DNA of 64,000 bases from a virus. The notes under the pieces were generated by a model. The model searched no databases and was not told the origin of the DNA. It saw nothing but the letters and a program-made list of their open reading frames with translations. The stretch lies in IMG/VR virus record IMGVR_UViG_3300046804_006785. One strand, written 5' to 3'. Positions 1,276-56,592 of the stretch are shown here, piece after piece. Every line of letters begins with the position of its first letter. Positions within the stretch are counted from its first letter, which is position 1. A program made the translations under genes and the position numbers.

Positions 1276-1351
1276 TAACCAATTTAAGCAAAGTAGGCAA
1301 CTATGACAATTTTACAGCATAACTTTAATGATTCTCTAATTCAACATAGAT

Positions 1352-1514
1352 AAGAATTTCAGCCATTTTACTATTATAAGTATTCGCGCACCTTATACAG
1401 CAAAGGTTTCAGCTATTTCGCCCCTTGACACAATTCTTGAAATGGACTATTATAATACCATCCGCGCAACTGAACCTTGAAAACTAAATATAGTAAGGAC
1501 TCTGGAGTGCAGCA
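1352..1514 (+). promoter_or_regulatory. CRISPR leader with promoter
   Basis: TTGACA 1425-1430, N17, TATTAT 1448-1453; ccgcgcaactgaaccttgaaaactaaata resembles cyanobacterial CRISPR leaders. Confidence 0.7.
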
Positions 1515-1695
1515 GTATAAATACTCCCTTAATAGGGAGTTGGATTGAAACTTTTTGTCGCCCATAATTCAGTATTACTCATTCCGTATAAATACTCCCT
1601 TAATAGGGAGTTGGATTGAAACACAAGTGCGGTGATTGTGGTAAATCTTTCAATGTATGTATAAATACTCCCTTAATAGGGAGTTGGATTGAAAC
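1515..1695 (+). CRISPR. CRISPR mini-array, 3 identical 37-nt repeats and 2 spacers (34 and 36 nt)
   Basis: GTATAAATACTCCCTTAATAGGGAGTTGGATTGAAAC at 1515-1551, 1586-1622, 1659-1695; hairpin ACTCCC/GGGAGT; 3' end ATTGAAAC. Confidence 0.95.
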
Positions 1696-2357
1696 TAACT
1701 ACTGGAAGACACAAGGAGCAAAATCCTTTGCTAGTAAAGTCTCTACCGCCCTTCTGAATGGAAGCCCGGCTACAATTACTATAGAAGGTGGTAATGAAAA
1801 AGACATTCAAGGTACATGGGTTCATCCTAAAGTAGCCATGCACTTAGCTATGTCTATTTCTGATGATTTTGCACTTTGGGCAACTGATGTTTTATTAAGA
1901 GTTGTCAATGGTGAGTTTAAAGCGTTAACCGCCGATGCGGAACAGGCACTTAAAAAGCTAAACGAACTATGGGATCTTATTAGACAACATGGTAAAGCTA
2001 CTCGGAATGATTTAACCTACGCCATCAAACAGTATCTTCTAAAACATCCAGATAGTTCTGAGCAATATAAAAGATGGATTTATGCCAATGCTACCAACCT
2101 GATGTATAACGCTGTTTTTGGGATGACTGCACAGCAACTTGAAGAATTTTTAACCTGTGGACGTAATAAATCACGAGATAATCTTGATTCTAAGTGTCTA
2201 GATAAAATAGATCGCGTTGAAAGTGCTATTTGCGATCTGATTAACGATCAAGACATAGAACCTATGGAAGCCGTTGAACGCTATGTTAAGTTCATGAAAT
2301 TGAAACCTATGTTTCCAAATAAAAAGCTTGAATCCTACGACTTAAATTAATCAACCA

Positions 2358-6655: not shown

Positions 6656-7039
6656 ATGGTAAACGTAAAACAATATACAGGCAAGCTTGCTGACTTGCTT
6701 AACTGGGAACTCGATCTAGAGTTCTGGAATGATGCTCAGGAAATCATTAGGGAGTCTTTACCCTATCCCTATGAATTAGAAACTACTAAAGTATATTTTG
6801 CTTATGCTGGTAGTAGAATAATAGGCTTTATCATCGGTGGTGATGATGGTGATGAGCGAGATGAGTGCTGGCGTATCGCTGTTGATCCTGACTATCGGGG
6901 TCAGGGTATAGCTACTGAATTAGTGAATGTTTCAGGATTAGATAATCCTAGAGACATTGAGAACACAACAGAAGCTAAAGGTTTTTGGGCAAGTTTTGGT
7001 TATAAATCCCCACGACGTAGTTTATTGGTAACTGTATGA
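6656..7039 (+). CDS. GNAT family acetyltransferase
   Basis: IAVDPDYRGQGIATELV acetyl-CoA motif and AKGFWASFGY. Confidence 0.85.
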   Translation: MVNVKQYTGKLADLLNWELDLEFWNDAQEIIRESLPYPYELETTKVYFAYAGSRIIGFIIGGDDGDERDECWRIAVDPDYRGQGIATELVNVSGLDNPRDIENTTEAKGFWASFGYKSPRRSLLVTV

Positions 7040-14399: not shown

Positions 14400-14436
14400 G
14401 CTAAAATACTCCCTTAACAAGGAGTTGGATTGAAAC
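14400..14436 (+). CRISPR. solo CRISPR repeat (32/37 identical to the array repeat)
   Basis: GCTAAAATACTCCCTTAACAAGGAGTTGGATTGAAAC. Confidence 0.85.
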
Positions 14437-15126
14437 GGATAAGTCCCCTAAATCAGATAAAACAGCACTTTGATAGCTTTACTCACCTTTCTCAAGTGAC
14501 ACAGATTGTTTAAGGTGACTGTGTTAGGCAATCATGATGAATAGTTCACTAGAACATTTTATTTTTTTACTCAAAATGTTCAGTCATTTGTCCTGCAAAT
14601 TTTTAAGATTTAAGCGTATATTAATAGATTAATCTGTACAATTTTCAAAAATTAGTATAAATAGGAACTCTCTATTTTTGACTAAAGCTAAAAAGTATAT
14701 TACTAACTAGCAACTAGCATACTATTTAAGTTATTGCTTAGGCACTTTTCGCGCCTCAATTCTAAGGGTACAGTCTGGAAGCCTTATTCTATATAGATTG
14801 GTGATCCAAACTTTGAAATAATAGAAATAATATTACAGAACTTGGATCACTCTTTTTGTATCAATTTTTTAAAAATCCTTATATAGTAATAGTCTTAGCT
14901 ATTATTTTGCGTAAGTATTTATTTTATACTTTAGACTTTAAGTAAGAAAGGTGTCGGAAGATTGCTTAAAATACCTGAACGTTAATCATAAATGGTCTGA
15001 AAATCATATAAAGTGTTCAGGCTGTGAAATTACTTATAAAATTTCTATAGTTATTTTAACTAAGTAGTAAAATAAATCTAAGTATGTCTGAATATTTTAC
15101 TATTTTATTGATTTTTTCAGACATAT

Positions 15127-26707: not shown

Positions 26708-27379
26708 ATGGCAGACTTAGCAGTGTTTAGTTCAAATATGGAAGACAACGGAGCGATTACCACACCTATTACACCAACTAAAAGAGGTAGACCCCGTAAA
26801 GGTGGCGACCTTTCTACCGTTGGTAAAGGTCAAGTGACTGGAATCACTTCCCTAAATTTTGATGAAGCTTCAATAAAAAGTATTAGCTTGATTAGTGAAA
26901 CCCTTGGGGCTGATTTCCTGCCTCAATTGTATCAACGTCTTCAGGCTAAAGCCGCTAGTATGGCTATTGAATTTCAACAAACTAAGGAAAGTGAAGAAGC
27001 CCTGACTATTGCCTCTCAACTTAACATTGAACGCGCTCAAAACATAGGACGTGAAGCGGGTTCTAGACAAATGGAACTGCGTCAACTAACAAAACTGAAA
27101 GACGACGCTGATAAGTGGATGGATGAGCAGTTTGAAAACATGGTGCTGAATTATGCAACCATTGGCATTTCTTATGCTCAAATTGTGACCATGATGAAAA
27201 ATCATGCGTCCAAGCTGCACATTGATCTTGCTGATTTTCAAATTAGCAAAACAGGACAATGGGATTTTCCAGATTACCAGTTTATCCATGAGGATAAAAT
27301 TGAGTTTTGCAAAGCTAGACTCGCCGAGCTTGGCGTGGAAATAGATAAACTAAAAGCACTAGGAATTGAGGTTGAGTAA
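26708..27379 (+). CDS. coiled-coil protein with AT-hook-like motif
   Basis: KRGRPRK near the N-terminus; first gene of a plus-strand operon. Confidence 0.6.
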   Translation: MADLAVFSSNMEDNGAITTPITPTKRGRPRKGGDLSTVGKGQVTGITSLNFDEASIKSISLISETLGADFLPQLYQRLQAKAASMAIEFQQTKESEEALTIASQLNIERAQNIGREAGSRQMELRQLTKLKDDADKWMDEQFENMVLNYATIGISYAQIVTMMKNHASKLHIDLADFQISKTGQWDFPDYQFIHEDKIEFCKARLAELGVEIDKLKALGIEVE

Positions 27380-29359: not shown

Positions 29360-29432
29360 TGGTCTATACTAAAGTCAAAAGAAATTGCTGATAGCCTTAC
29401 TGATAGTCAAACAGCGTATGACTCATGACGTG

Positions 29433-29468
29433 ATATAAATACTTCCTGAAAAGGAGTTGGATTGAAAC
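29433..29468 (+). CRISPR. solo degenerate CRISPR repeat
   Basis: ATATAAATACTTCCTGAAAAGGAGTTGGATTGAAAC; last 16 nt identical to the array repeat. Confidence 0.75.
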
Positions 29469-29566
29469 TCATTTACATGATTAATAAACTAAAACATCTT
29501 AAAATATTTTAAGATGTTTTTTATTTTGTATTATAATAGTGATATTATTTTAAGGAGTAGGGTAAC

Positions 29567-35415: not shown

Positions 35416-35460
35416 ATAACAACAAACCCCTAGCAGCAAGTGTTAGGGGTTTTTAGGATG

Positions 35461-35636
35461 TTATAAGCACTTAGCTAGGAACAATTTATCAGTTTCAATC
35501 CGTTTCAATCCGTTTCAATCCAACTCACACGAAAGTGAGTATTTACTGTGATCAACGCTTACAAGCATTTAGCTAGGAATAGCTTATCAGATCGTTCTAG
35601 TTTCAATCCAACTCCCTATTAAGGGAGTATTTATAT
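35461..35636 (-). CRISPR. mini-array: 2 repeats, a GGATTGAAAC stutter, and 2 spacer-like units copying the adjacent gene's 3' end
   Basis: Repeat A 35636-35600 (36/37 to consensus); repeat B 35548-35512 with compensatory stem ACTCAC/GTGAGT; two extra 10-mers 35511-35492. Confidence 0.9.
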
Positions 35637-35649
35637 TTGTCTCAGTCTC

Positions 35650-36321
35650 TTATAAGCACTTAGACAAAAACAATTTATCAGATCGTTCTAGTCCGCAGCT
35701 ATACGCATCAAGCATCACACTTTCTAGCAGTTCTGCCGCATAGATTAGTTTCTGCTTCCAATCGTCCCTAAAAACTATGTCTTTAGGAATATTCATGGTT
35801 ATTTTACCATGTGCTACTATTTTATCAAATGAAGATAGCACACAAGATATATTTTCAGCAACATCAAAGTATCCGTTATGTTGTTGTGGTATTGTTCCGG
35901 CGGCAGTTGATCTAGTAGGTTGAGGGTCATCATGAAATAAGTAGTCATCTATAGGGATGTCTTCTACTTGAGCCTCCATATATTCAATCAGTTCAGCCTG
36001 TGCTTGTTGTGGCACATCTGAAATCTGATATCCCTGGAGATTACAAAACCGTTCAGCCTGTGCGTAAGTGGCTGTTCTGTGGATTAACACCCCTTTAACC
36101 ACGATGATGTATGGTTGAGTTAACCCATCTAGGCTGTCATCATCGTAGTCAATAATGGCAACTTCTTTTTCAACTTGCTTAGGTTGTGGCTGATGAGCCA
36201 GAATTTCTGTAATGCAATCGGCTTTACTACGACGTTTAGCACAACCGATTTGATCACAGATTTTCCATAGTTGATTACGGGTTTTGTGGGATAGTTGCTT
36301 TTCAGAGTAGAAGTATGTCAT
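35650..36321 (-). CDS. hypothetical protein with N-terminal Rho_N/HEH-like motif
   Basis: KTRNQLWKICDQIG..RRSKADCITEIL; ends LERSDKLFLSKCL. Confidence 0.65.
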   Translation of the reverse strand: MTYFYSEKQLSHKTRNQLWKICDQIGCAKRRSKADCITEILAHQPQPKQVEKEVAIIDYDDDSLDGLTQPYIIVVKGVLIHRTATYAQAERFCNLQGYQISDVPQQAQAELIEYMEAQVEDIPIDDYLFHDDPQPTRSTAAGTIPQQHNGYFDVAENISCVLSSFDKIVAHGKITMNIPKDIVFRDDWKQKLIYAAELLESVMLDAYSCGLERSDKLFLSKCL

Positions 36322-36473
36322 TATTAATTAAACCTTTAATAGAGGTCTTAGGAAGTCGCTTGTTTTCCAGACGTGGCGACTTCCTTTGTATGATTAAAAT
36401 ATAAACTATATAGTTTACAGTTGTCAAGTAATAAGCTAAGATTTTAATAAATTTAATTTGGAGTCACTTACTG

Positions 36474-53154: not shown

Positions 53155-53667
53155 ATGAAACATTACGGAATACCCCAAACAAGAGACAAAAGTTATGGCG
53201 TTGCTGCCTGTTTAACCTATTGGGTTTTTAAGTGTAGAGATAGAAAGAAAAGCCCAGCAATGGGAACTAAAACCTGGACTTATCTAGAGTCCAGTATTAG
53301 AAATTCAGCCGAAATTTCTACTAATTTAGAGGACTATTTACAGCGACTTTGTGATAAATTATGCTCACAATTAAGACCTGTTGAATTAACAAAAATTATT
53401 CAACCAACACAGCGCATCCTTAGAGTAAATGAAGATGCTACTGAGATTAAAGAACTTCCCATAGATCAAAATTTAGTATTCATGGGATGGTTAGATTTAC
53501 TTGCAGATATTTCACCTGAAGGATTCACAGAATGGGATATTTTAGAACTGCTTAGAACTAAAGCAGGAATTATTCAGGTTTTATGCCGACTAAGATTTGA
53601 GGAAGACCGCGCTTTAGGACTTGATGAGCCAGAAGAATTTATTGATGTTGAGGTAGCAAATGTTTGA
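53155..53667 (+). CDS. csf4: type IV-B small subunit (Cas11-like)
   Basis: Helical 170-aa protein directly upstream of csf2; WTYLESSIRNSA...LEDYLQRLCDKL pattern; call rests partly on position. Confidence 0.65.
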   Translation: MKHYGIPQTRDKSYGVAACLTYWVFKCRDRKKSPAMGTKTWTYLESSIRNSAEISTNLEDYLQRLCDKLCSQLRPVELTKIIQPTQRILRVNEDATEIKELPIDQNLVFMGWLDLLADISPEGFTEWDILELLRTKAGIIQVLCRLRFEEDRALGLDEPEEFIDVEVANV

Positions 53668-54790
53668 TAATTACGATGTTTTTAACAGAGAAAAATTGAC
53701 TTTACATTGTGTGATTACAACACAAACCCCACTAAGCCATATTGGTGAAGTATCTGGTAATGTCAGCAACTTAAAAACGCTTAAACTATTGGATTTTGAA
53801 GGCAATCCTAGAAGTATTTTTACTTATTCTGGTAATGCCTTAAGAAACGGTATTTTAAGACGGGTTGGAGTAGCGGCGGCATTAACAGAGTTAGGATTAC
53901 AGGTTAATCCTGACACTCACCACACAATGTTCGCTGGTGGTAGAATTGACGCGGGTACAGCTTCAGATATGGAGTTAGATAAGAAGATCCGAGTTTTGAT
54001 GCCTTGGTTGTCTGTTCTAGGCACGGCTAAACCTGCTAAAGTTTTTGGATCTAAAGATGCCCAAATGGTGCAAGGTCGGATCAATGTTGGTTCTGCTTAT
54101 CTGCAGTGTTACGAGTCAGCAGAATATATTTACAACCAAATCCCGTCTGCTTTACCACCAAGGGTACAGCCAATCATTGAACAGTTGTTACAAGCTAAAA
54201 ATAAGTTATCTTCAGATCCATTTGTTCCTACAAAATTAGAAGATGCTGATTTTTGGGAAAGTTCTAAATCTAAATATCTTCCGTTACTTCAAAAACATTT
54301 GAAGACATGGACTGAGTATTTAACTATTGATCAAACTACTCGCAGAGATAGCACTTTAGACCCTAATTTACTCAAGTTTTTACCATCAGGAGCACAAGCG
54401 CAATTGAAAGGCGACGGCACTACTAAAGAGAAAAAATCAGATCAAATGATTGCTTCTGATAGGTTAATTATGCCTGGTGCTAAATTATATTCACGCTGGG
54501 ATCTAAATTGTACTCAAGTGGAACAAGGTTGGATTTTTGATACTTTATTAAAGTTTGCTGAATCGCCCTATATTGGTGGTAAGGGCAACCGAGGTAACGG
54601 TCGAGTAAGCCTTAATTTTTGGTTTAGTTCTACCACTGAGCGCGGTTTATTGTGGAGTTCTGAAAGCGGTATTGAGAGTAAGAAATTTGAACTTGCTCAT
54701 GCTAAATACAGGGAATATATCAATCAATATCAGCAATTTTTAAGCGAAGCAAAAACATCAACCGAGTTGAAAAACTTATTAGGTAGTTAG
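53660..54790 (+). CDS. csf2: type IV Cas7-like backbone subunit
   Basis: TPLSHI, YSGNALRNGILRR, MFAGG, SVLG, GRINVG, glycine loop IGGKGNRGNG. Confidence 0.9.
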   Translation: MFDNYDVFNREKLTLHCVITTQTPLSHIGEVSGNVSNLKTLKLLDFEGNPRSIFTYSGNALRNGILRRVGVAAALTELGLQVNPDTHHTMFAGGRIDAGTASDMELDKKIRVLMPWLSVLGTAKPAKVFGSKDAQMVQGRINVGSAYLQCYESAEYIYNQIPSALPPRVQPIIEQLLQAKNKLSSDPFVPTKLEDADFWESSKSKYLPLLQKHLKTWTEYLTIDQTTRRDSTLDPNLLKFLPSGAQAQLKGDGTTKEKKSDQMIASDRLIMPGAKLYSRWDLNCTQVEQGWIFDTLLKFAESPYIGGKGNRGNGRVSLNFWFSSTTERGLLWSSESGIESKKFELAHAKYREYINQYQQFLSEAKTSTELKNLLGS

Positions 54791-54838
54791 CAGTCAACAA
54801 GCCTGGTTTTCCAGGCTTTTCGTCTTTAATATTAATTT

Positions 54839-55546
54839 ATGCAGAATCTAAAAATTACAGCGCACCTATCAACAGCTATCGGCACTTATGATAATTGGAG
54901 TCCATCACTAGAGGGCATCCTAGTCTATCAATTGCTTGAAAATAACAATTTGCTTAGTCCTAACCCCACACCTCAACAAATGGCAGACGTTCAGGAATTT
55001 TTACGAGATAATCTACCGTTAAAACAAGCTACTCTGAAAAATGAATCACACTGGTGCGTTAGTGCGCCTTGTTATGTAATCAAAGGCGAAACTACAGATA
55101 AATACCGTAAACGCTGGGATAATCATGAAAATAACCTAAATTGGGGTAAAAGAAAACCACAATTTAAAACTGGTGAAGGGGCAGAAAAATCTTATGATCT
55201 TCCTTTATTTACTCGTTCTGTGACTAACATTAGCTGGTTTGTAGTTGGTAATAAAACGGGAATTAAAGATTTATTATCCACAGTTACTCACATTCAGAAA
55301 AAACGCAGTTATGGTAATGGTGAAATTAGAGAATGGGAAATAGGTATAACGCATGATGACTATCATCTATGGCGAGATGATAAACTAATGAAACCTATTC
55401 CTGTTAGGTTAGTTGATGATAAATTAGACAATCCTCAAATGGTGTGGGGATGGAGAAGCCCAGCTTGGTTAGCTACTAATAAAGAACTTTGTTATATGCC
55501 CAAGGATAATGTGATTTATGGAACTAGAAGAAAGATTAATGTTTGA
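54839..55546 (+). CDS. csf3: type IV Cas5-like subunit
   Basis: LKITAHL, LEGIL, LPL, SWFVVGN, THIQKKRSYGNGEI, KPIP. Confidence 0.85.
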   Translation: MQNLKITAHLSTAIGTYDNWSPSLEGILVYQLLENNNLLSPNPTPQQMADVQEFLRDNLPLKQATLKNESHWCVSAPCYVIKGETTDKYRKRWDNHENNLNWGKRKPQFKTGEGAEKSYDLPLFTRSVTNISWFVVGNKTGIKDLLSTVTHIQKKRSYGNGEIREWEIGITHDDYHLWRDDKLMKPIPVRLVDDKLDNPQMVWGWRSPAWLATNKELCYMPKDNVIYGTRRKINV

Positions 55547-56222
55547 AGGTTGGGCAAATCTACCACAGTTTAAGAAGAAGGTAGATCAAGCTAAGTCAAT
55601 TATCAAACAAGCTTTGGAGATTGCACCTGCTTATGTGGCTGTAAGTTGGGGTAAAGATAGTGTAGTTATGCTGCATTTATGTCAACAAGTACAGCCGGAT
55701 ATTGTTGCTATATTTTTAACAGATAGTGAACAAGAAAACTTTGGTAACTATTCTGATGTCATCAAACAATACTTAGACAAATATCAGACAAATTATCTAG
55801 AACTTGATCTTATTGGTGATAGGATACCTCACAAGTTTGAAGCGGCTGAACTGTGGAAAACATACCCAGTAGCTTTTCAAGGATTACGATTAGAAGAAGG
55901 CGGAAAAAGGAAATTTAGTTTGAATAAATATGGGCATACCTATCAATTAGCCAATGGTAGTTACAGAGTATGTCCGTTGATTTATTGGGGATGGAAGGAT
56001 ATTTGGGCATACATTGTCATCAACAATTTACCCTACTTGGATGTTTACGATCACTCAATTAACAGTGATAGATCAAAGTCAAGATCCTGTAATCTGTTAG
56101 CTAAAGAACAAGGCAATACAAAAGCAGTAGAAACGGGTAGAATAGCTAGATTAAGACTTTTAAATCCTGAATACTATAACTATCTTCAGGAAAATTATCC
56201 ACACTTAGCGTCAGCAACTTAA
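55518..56222 (+). CDS. cysH: CysH/PAPS-reductase-like type IV-B accessory protein
   Basis: VAVSWGKDSVVMLHL PP-loop, GLRLEE, CPLIYWGWKDIWAYI. Confidence 0.85.
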   Translation: MELEERLMFEGWANLPQFKKKVDQAKSIIKQALEIAPAYVAVSWGKDSVVMLHLCQQVQPDIVAIFLTDSEQENFGNYSDVIKQYLDKYQTNYLELDLIGDRIPHKFEAAELWKTYPVAFQGLRLEEGGKRKFSLNKYGHTYQLANGSYRVCPLIYWGWKDIWAYIVINNLPYLDVYDHSINSDRSKSRSCNLLAKEQGNTKAVETGRIARLRLLNPEYYNYLQENYPHLASAT

Positions 56223-56223
56223 T

Positions 56224-56592
56224 ATGATTCAGATGAAATATTACAAAGATGCAAACATTGATGAATGGTTAAGCATGGCAGGCTCTCAAGCCAAGGGGTT
56301 ACCTTTAGTCAAATCTGGTAACTTTGCGGCTGATATGCTCAAGTTTGACCGATGGGAACAAACAACTTTACACACTCACCCCGGTGATCATATTTTATTT
56401 GTGGTTGAGGGTGATGGATGGTTAGATTATGGTGATAAAACTTATGATCTAGCTATAGGTAGTTGCTATTTTGTGGTAGGTCGTATACCTCACAGAGTAC
56501 GGGCTTCCAGTGCAGGAATGTTTCTACTCGCTATTGCTAATAATCATTACTCCGTTGATAATCCTGACAGGTTAGAGGTGATCCGTGAGTAA
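56224..56592 (+). CDS. cupin domain protein
   Basis: LHTHPGDHILFVVEG...GRIPHRV cupin motifs. Confidence 0.9.
   Translation: MIQMKYYKDANIDEWLSMAGSQAKGLPLVKSGNFAADMLKFDRWEQTTLHTHPGDHILFVVEGDGWLDYGDKTYDLAIGSCYFVVGRIPHRVRASSAGMFLLAIANNHYSVDNPDRLEVIRE

Follow-up and report, generated by a model that had tools for sequence, protein, structure and literature searches.

Nested type I-C CRISPR repeats joined to rival alleles behind a cyanophage gene form a candidate RNA-guided homing or allele-exclusion cassette

The 223-aa gene designated gene X, located in a 64-kb stretch of DNA (the window) that is part of a large phage-like element with a contig of 171,851 bp, is followed by a stack of recombination junctions and not by a normal CRISPR array. 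In each junction unit a gene end is followed by a linker and a type I-C repeat, which leads into the continuation of another allele. Comparison of the alleles of this locus, all of them from metagenomic assemblies, indicates that a repeat-bearing left arm has been joined to the right arm of a rival allele, usually exactly at a PAM, and that this has occurred repeatedly and in nested fashion. The reading toward which we lean is that the cassette is a protein-free element for RNA-guided homing or allele exclusion, acting in trans with a type I-C Cascade-Cas3. Features of the window are listed in Table 1.

Table 1. Gene X, its downstream repeat stack, and other repeat-bearing sites in the window
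Feature	Position	Strand	Remarks
Leader and three repeats	1515..1695	+	Take the place of part of a KilA-N gene, into which the last repeat reads
Solitary repeat	14400..14436	+	Preceded by a promoter and some 140 nt of non-coding DNA
Solitary repeat	29432..29468	+	Repeat-less L121 has GTG immediately 5' of the junction, with 5/30 mismatches
Native terminator hairpin of gene X	35420..35453	-	Adjoins the stop in repeat-less alleles
Oldest displaced gene end, 31 nt	35461..35491	-	Continuous with native terminator
Two additional 10-nt repeat-handle copies	35492..35511	-	Present in L014 too
Repeat B	35512..35548	-	Variant whose stem differs by a compensatory C-G to A-U change
Linker B, 10 nt	35549..35558	-	Always joined to repeat B
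Displaced end of B-cassette allele, 41 nt	35559..35599	-	Predicted guide of repeat A
Repeat A, 37-nt type I-C repeat	35600..35636	-	7-bp stem, 11-nt handle
Linker A, 13 nt	35637..35649	-	Always joined to repeat A
Gene X	35650..36321	-	223 aa; function unknown; N-terminus weakly Rho-N-like; sequence highly mosaic across related phages
Gene X 3' tract travelling with cassette A	35650..35754	-	105 nt identical in window, L007, L121, and L154
Sigma70-like promoter, 11/12, 5' of gene X	36398..36427	-	Consensus match only

The transcript order at the locus is gene end, linker A, repeat A, 41-nt end, linker B, repeat B, the two handle copies, 31-nt end, and terminator; both repeat hairpins and the terminator fold, and the 190-nt insert behind gene X contains no ORF. 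The promoter 5' of gene X would co-transcribe repeats A and B. An earlier, sequence-only reading described the locus as a mini-array with spacers that are recoded versions of the gene X 3' end, and its measurements are reproduced here: repeat A begins 13 nt after the gene X stop; the 41-nt copy differs from the gene X end at nine of 41 positions, eight of them synonymous and one an S>A change by codon comparison, with the first 16 nt identical; and the 31-nt copy differs at four of 31. The repeats are also true CRISPR repeats, but the arrangement departs from one or two normal-length spacers between repeats. Linker B and the 41-nt copy together make a 51-nt first insert, the repeats are non-identical, there are extra handles, and the second displaced copy has no closing repeat and reads directly into the native terminator of gene X. 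The handle copies preceding it would displace the following guide by 20 nt from its register; in all, the window has seven exact 13-nt handle matches. Gene X itself has about 30 close homologues, none with a known function; no Pfam family was found for it, and its Atlas match to Rho-N (0.79) is a lead only. Close relatives of gene X were not found in IMG/VR or in 389 Nostocales-family genomes, and there were no relatives among INPHARED phages.

The repeats belong to the CRISPR system of the phage lineage. Identical or near-identical repeats form arrays of 22 to 31 units flanking cas3/cas5c/cas8c/cas7c in G001 and G002 (two records of a related phage), and repeat A is 1 nt apart from the consensus of the phage arrays. 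A stem-loop, an 11-nt 3' handle, and association with cas5c/cas8c/cas7c/cas3 identify them as type I-C, and over 11 repeat variants the stem is paired at 93% with compensatory changes (1/500 shuffles, a test that is inflated by relatedness of the variants). The window is about 90% identical to the IMG/VR record G001 in long blocks, and Cas7c, Cas8c, and Cas3 (with HD and helicase motifs) that are 94 to 99% identical to the G001/G002 proteins are coded for by a 171,851-bp contig. As this contig and the gene X contig have exactly the same length, the window's own phage very probably encodes the cognate I-C effector. The effector is very probably this phage type I-C system rather than a host I-D system; a Cas10d search gave no match anywhere. 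Two candidates were rejected as the effector. An array-less type IV-B-like operon (53155-57250), with weak csf2, csf3, and csf1 matches and a cysH-like PAPS reductase, is not needed, since the repeat flanks the I-C operon; and the TnpB behind gene X in L035-37 is of an ordinary IS605 type that has no repeat, and the sequence beyond its end is unlike gene X. In L035 (positions 1679-2900) this TnpB lacks tnpA, lies directly behind gene X, and is followed by a Rep_1 gene; it is a second RNA-guided element at the gene X hot spot.

The window repeat has no exact match in the GTDB representatives scanned, and a shorter repeat pattern gave only chance matches in IMG/VR outside this phage lineage. The nearest host I-C systems have 63 to 70% Cas7 identity and related but different repeats of the same stem-plus-handle design. 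The locus therefore does not have the host-identical repeat in a cas-free virus that is typical of a mini-array: the host I-C repeats differ, the GTDB representatives have no exact match, and a contig of equal length bears cas3/8c/7c. One I-C spacer of Cuspidothrix issatschenkoi matches window positions 55813-55848 with three mismatches and a GTT PAM, and a second matches a 176- to 179-aa YpsA-like gene in L059/L119, pointing to a bloom-forming Nostocales host. There is no cas1 in G001/G002, and two candidate hosts carry cas1 elsewhere. Nostocales and phage I-C loci (L061-L064, L074, L075, and L001) have no adjoining cas1 and a GTN/RTN PAM, not TTC, and are probably fed in trans by another adaptation module.

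The sequence-only reading also proposed that successive insertions of a new gene end plus repeat turned each displaced end into a guide, and this is borne out by L025, L014, and L154. In the repeat-less alleles (L008, L009, L027-29, L038, L039, L053-55, L057-58, and L119-120) the stop leads directly into the terminator. L025 and L026 have linker B, repeat B, a 147-nt old gene end, and the terminator, with the old end being 95% like L038 and 71% like their own gene end. L014 carries cassette B and then A, the reverse of the window order, and the window stack is present unchanged in L007, L059, L121, and L122, all from independent samples. In L154, cassette A meets a point that lies 1,917 bp past the end of gene X in L119 coordinates; two genes are deleted, and the next 1.1 kb shares 98.8% identity with L119. 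A 335-aa gene with a precomputed AcrVA2-like match (L119:6624-7631), which adjoins gene X in L119/L120, is lost at the L154 junction; L119 and G001 are from one sample, and L119 may fill a G001 assembly gap. From this allele series it follows that the left arm carries the linker and repeat, and the right arm is whichever genome was joined. Where the junction lies within gene X, the gene end is present in duplicate (window, L014, and L025), and where it lies farther downstream, the intervening genes are lost (L154). Occupied and empty alleles thus both occur at the homologous site, as is characteristic of homing elements.

Cassette A is found on four gene X backgrounds, with left breakpoints 105, 161, and 255 nt before the stop, and the 5' parts of gene X in the window, L007, L121, and L154 are 84 to 88% identical where measured. 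The window and L121 share a 1.47-kb identical block, but the cassette-free pair L027/L054 shares 1.65 kb, and because cassette-free pairs share equally long blocks, spread over several backgrounds is no proof of drive. Haplotype sharing is compatible with biased inheritance but is equalled by these cassette-free controls. All but one of the 15 repeat loci examined (the exception being L008) follow a same-strand promoter or ORF.

The PAM was derived from array spacers, independently of the junctions. The protospacers of 15 array spacers are flanked by GTT (five), GTC (four), ATT (two), ATC, GTG, GAA, and AAT, giving a GTN/RTN motif (RTN in 13/15, of which 10 are GTN). The canonical type I-C PAM is TTC, whereas the phage lineage and its Nostocales I-C relatives use GTN/RTN. 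A GTN PAM is also set by the I-D Cas4 of Synechocystis (PMC5896167). At the junctions, the flanks in repeat-less alleles are GTT (L025), CTT (L014), ATC (terminal guide), GCT (window guide A), GTC (L154), GTA at each of two G001 sites, and GTG at 29469. GTN is thus present at five of eight junctions against a background of 0.053 (binomial p about 2e-5, rough) and RTN at six of eight against 0.144 (p about 2e-4, rough). These counts exclude the junction at 14437, which has a CTC flank and might be accounted for by a 4-nt microhomology; with it, GTN would be present in 5/9. The PAM had already been fixed when L154 was obtained, and the L154 guide matches L119/L120/L008 at 35/35 positions with a GTC flank. 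The recognition site is lost on insertion and intact in the empty allele at six of the eight junctions (RTN), the exceptions being window guide A and L014. For three junctions (window position 1696, L008, and L033) the search yielded no repeat-less allele. The PAM bias at the junctions is explicable by spacer acquisition alone.

The inserts are the ends of genuine gene X alleles, as had been supposed, and repeat-less natural alleles fit the guides better than the self allele does. Guide A has 2/35 mismatches to L057 (flank GCT) versus 8/35 to self (flank GAC), and the terminal guide has 1/35 to L038 and 7/35 to self, both with an ATC PAM. Across the four gene X guides there are 0 to 4/35 mismatches to some repeat-less allele and 7 to 10/35 to their own carrier, such that the guides fit related viruses better than the carrier, as mini-array guides do. 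The PAM predictions of the earlier reading are not supported. A rival allele with GGT-TTA codons and a GTT PAM is absent among about 15 loci, guide A being flanked everywhere by GCT, GAC, or GAT, none of them in the GTN/RTN consensus; and the PAM of the terminal guide is not exclusive to rivals, as the self allele also has a valid ATC, together with a perfect 12-nt seed. The 20-nt shift of the terminal guide in the window and L014 is interpreted as silencing, and the window copy may be partly spent, as the PAM flanking its first guide departs from the consensus and its second guide is displaced. At window positions 35703-35705, a synonymous Ala codon change in the A-cassette carriers turns the CTT flank of the L014 guide into CGT, and these carriers have three further seed mismatches to that guide, a possible escape from the rival cassette.

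The mechanism we favor is built on a single repeat that lies after the gene X stop in sense orientation and before the terminator, with its 3' end abutting another phage allele and usually joined at the first base after a GTN/RTN PAM. Cas5c would cleave at the repeat hairpin, converting the flanking DNA into a guide that would target repeat-less alleles still having the PAM; the carrier would be spared because the repeat replaces the PAM and the upstream gene end is a mismatched allele. In a co-infection, Cas3 would damage the naive genome, and repair from the carrier would copy the gene end and repeat into it, the left crossover falling in gene X and the right one in the displaced sequence. 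New junctions would most likely form by recombination through a spacer that a host Cas1-Cas2-Cas4 had acquired from a co-infecting relative; an origin by one-ended integration at the repeat is equally plausible and would give the same sequence. Repeated events stack cassettes in either order, and the junction products are those expected of such repair once a spacer has been acquired from a rival. Cas3 degrades DNA and does not make a clean break, so the main outcome may be loss of the rival and not copying. Biased inheritance (drive) is an inference and not an observation.

A broader version of this mechanism is plausible but is advanced tentatively: single repeats may be minimal, re-programmable homing elements for which the flank is both guide and right homology arm and Cascade-Cas3 is borrowed, and the whole phage I-C locus may home likewise via its terminal repeat (the G001 junction with PAM GTA). 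Rival cassettes would then invade in turn, and array-like stacks would arise by inter-genome recombination and not by spacer integration. At G001:14364, the terminal I-C repeat of G001 is joined to the sequence that follows GTA at window position 548, so that the whole cas locus shares the junction design. At G001:7160, the final 300 nt of a GNAT gene have given way to a single repeat; window 6730-7030 is the empty allele, with GTA at the joint. The persistence of gene-destroying junctions (GNAT and KilA-N) is as expected of selfish elements. The leader and three repeats at window 1303-1740 are 87% like the start of the G001 array, and the second spacer there is the reverse complement of a G001 spacer with few mismatches. 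At the site of the solitary repeat near window position 14400, G001 has two repeats with nested self-similar inserts. Two further regions of G001 (26798-26900 and 60-312) have more stacks of degenerate repeats with additional handles and self-similar inserts, and nesting is therefore not unique to gene X.

The cassettes could also be inter-phage mini-array weapons without drive, with expressed guides destroying relatives, junctions forming as recombination by-products, and spread resulting from genome-wide advantage and mosaicism. Viral mini-array spacers often target adjacent genes of relatives (PMC6858448), mosaicism is high even where cassettes are absent, and the guide, PAM, and expression data are explained equally well. 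We nonetheless consider this unlikely, as the junction products are carrier/target recombinants at the protospacer (L154, L014, and L025) with neither a closing repeat nor a fixed spacer length. It is less likely still that the junctions are escape scars from an attacked phage that recombined with a CRISPR array via a spacer, the repeat removing the PAM and guiding nothing useful. The exact junctions and PAM loss would be expected of such scars, relatives hold long arrays of the window repeat, and host I-C arrays do target the phage, as the Cuspidothrix spacer matches illustrate. However, the linker-repeat units A and B are found joined to several right-hand partners, which identifies the donor as a phage already carrying the repeat at the gene X locus, and the repeats are co-oriented with transcription with their stems kept.

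Solitary repeat units or Racrs, such as RacrIC1, are lone repeats in intergenic phage DNA that are transcribed behind genes (PMC10651486), and the repeats and extra handles could similarly be RNA anti-CRISPR decoys that sequester host I-C Cas proteins, their flanks being incidental. SRUFinder defines a solitary repeat as having no partial repeat within 100 bp, which describes L025 and L154 but not the window, where two repeats are 51 nt apart. The AcrVA2-like match beside gene X in L119/L120 and the stem-plus-handle design shared with host I-C repeats would suit a decoy, but such a role predicts neither PAM-exact junctions nor rival-fitting guides. Here, in contrast to Racrs, what follows the repeat matches rival alleles with a PAM as anchor, and the cognate effector is encoded by the phage lineage and very probably by this phage; a decoy function is therefore improbable. 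Partial-match, crlRNA-like self-regulation of gene X would suit the perfect self matches (16 nt for guide A and 12 nt for the terminal guide with its ATC PAM). It deserves hardly any credence, as the targets are at the gene X 3' end whereas described crlRNAs bind promoters (10.1101/2024.10.29.618823), the guides vary between haplotypes, and the L154 guide has no gene X match.

The homing or allele-exclusion cassette favored here has partial counterparts in known systems. Virus-borne mini-arrays have one or two guides against close relatives and not self, with targets near the array (PMC6858448; Faure 2019, as summarized in PMC6858448, PMC11656645, and PMC7099407), and Medvedeva 2019 left the origin and consequence of this proximity unclear (PMC6858448). 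The gene X guides similarly fit nearby sequences of related viruses, but there are no repeat-spacer-repeat units, the inserts are 31 to 147 nt or unbounded recipient DNA continuous with the terminator, the target is the insertion site itself, and the repeat matches the I-C arrays of the phage lineage. In T4 intronless homing, the free-standing endonucleases SegE/F/G and MobE cut the rival allele of a neighboring gene, with a resistant allele carried and flanks co-converted (PMC2988022). Cutting of the rival, a resistant allele, and flank co-conversion are likewise proposed here, but homing elements encode their own nuclease, whereas the gene X cassette has no nuclease gene and would take an RNA guide from its flank and Cascade-Cas3 in trans. 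TnpB and IscB guides derive from the DNA flanking the element. In omega-RNA homing of IS200/IS605 elements, the guide targets the empty site and biases inheritance, as outlined in Meers 2023 (10.1101/2023.03.14.532601; PMC10690162). The gene X cassette differs in having a 37-nt class 1 repeat and no transposase, TnpB, or IS ends, and its junctions duplicate or delete genes and stack.

A literature search of incomplete coverage found no report of natural CRISPR gene drive, mini-array homing, or flank-guided single-repeat homing. The gene X locus supplies a six-state allele series, an independently derived PAM, and, very probably, a cognate effector on the same replicon, and the natural alleles (empty, A, B, AB, BA, and deletion) are ready-made test substrates. 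The locus suggests a specific mechanism, open to testing, by which the spacers of viral mini-arrays would come to target sites beside the array (PMC6858448), and a second possible function for many solitary phage repeats, which are currently read mainly as decoys. If drive is true, the cassette would be a natural class 1 CRISPR counterpart of homing endonucleases of only about 50 to 150 nt, a tiny, protein-free selfish element moving between viruses, and a force reshuffling, duplicating, and deleting genes in phages of bloom-forming cyanobacteria.
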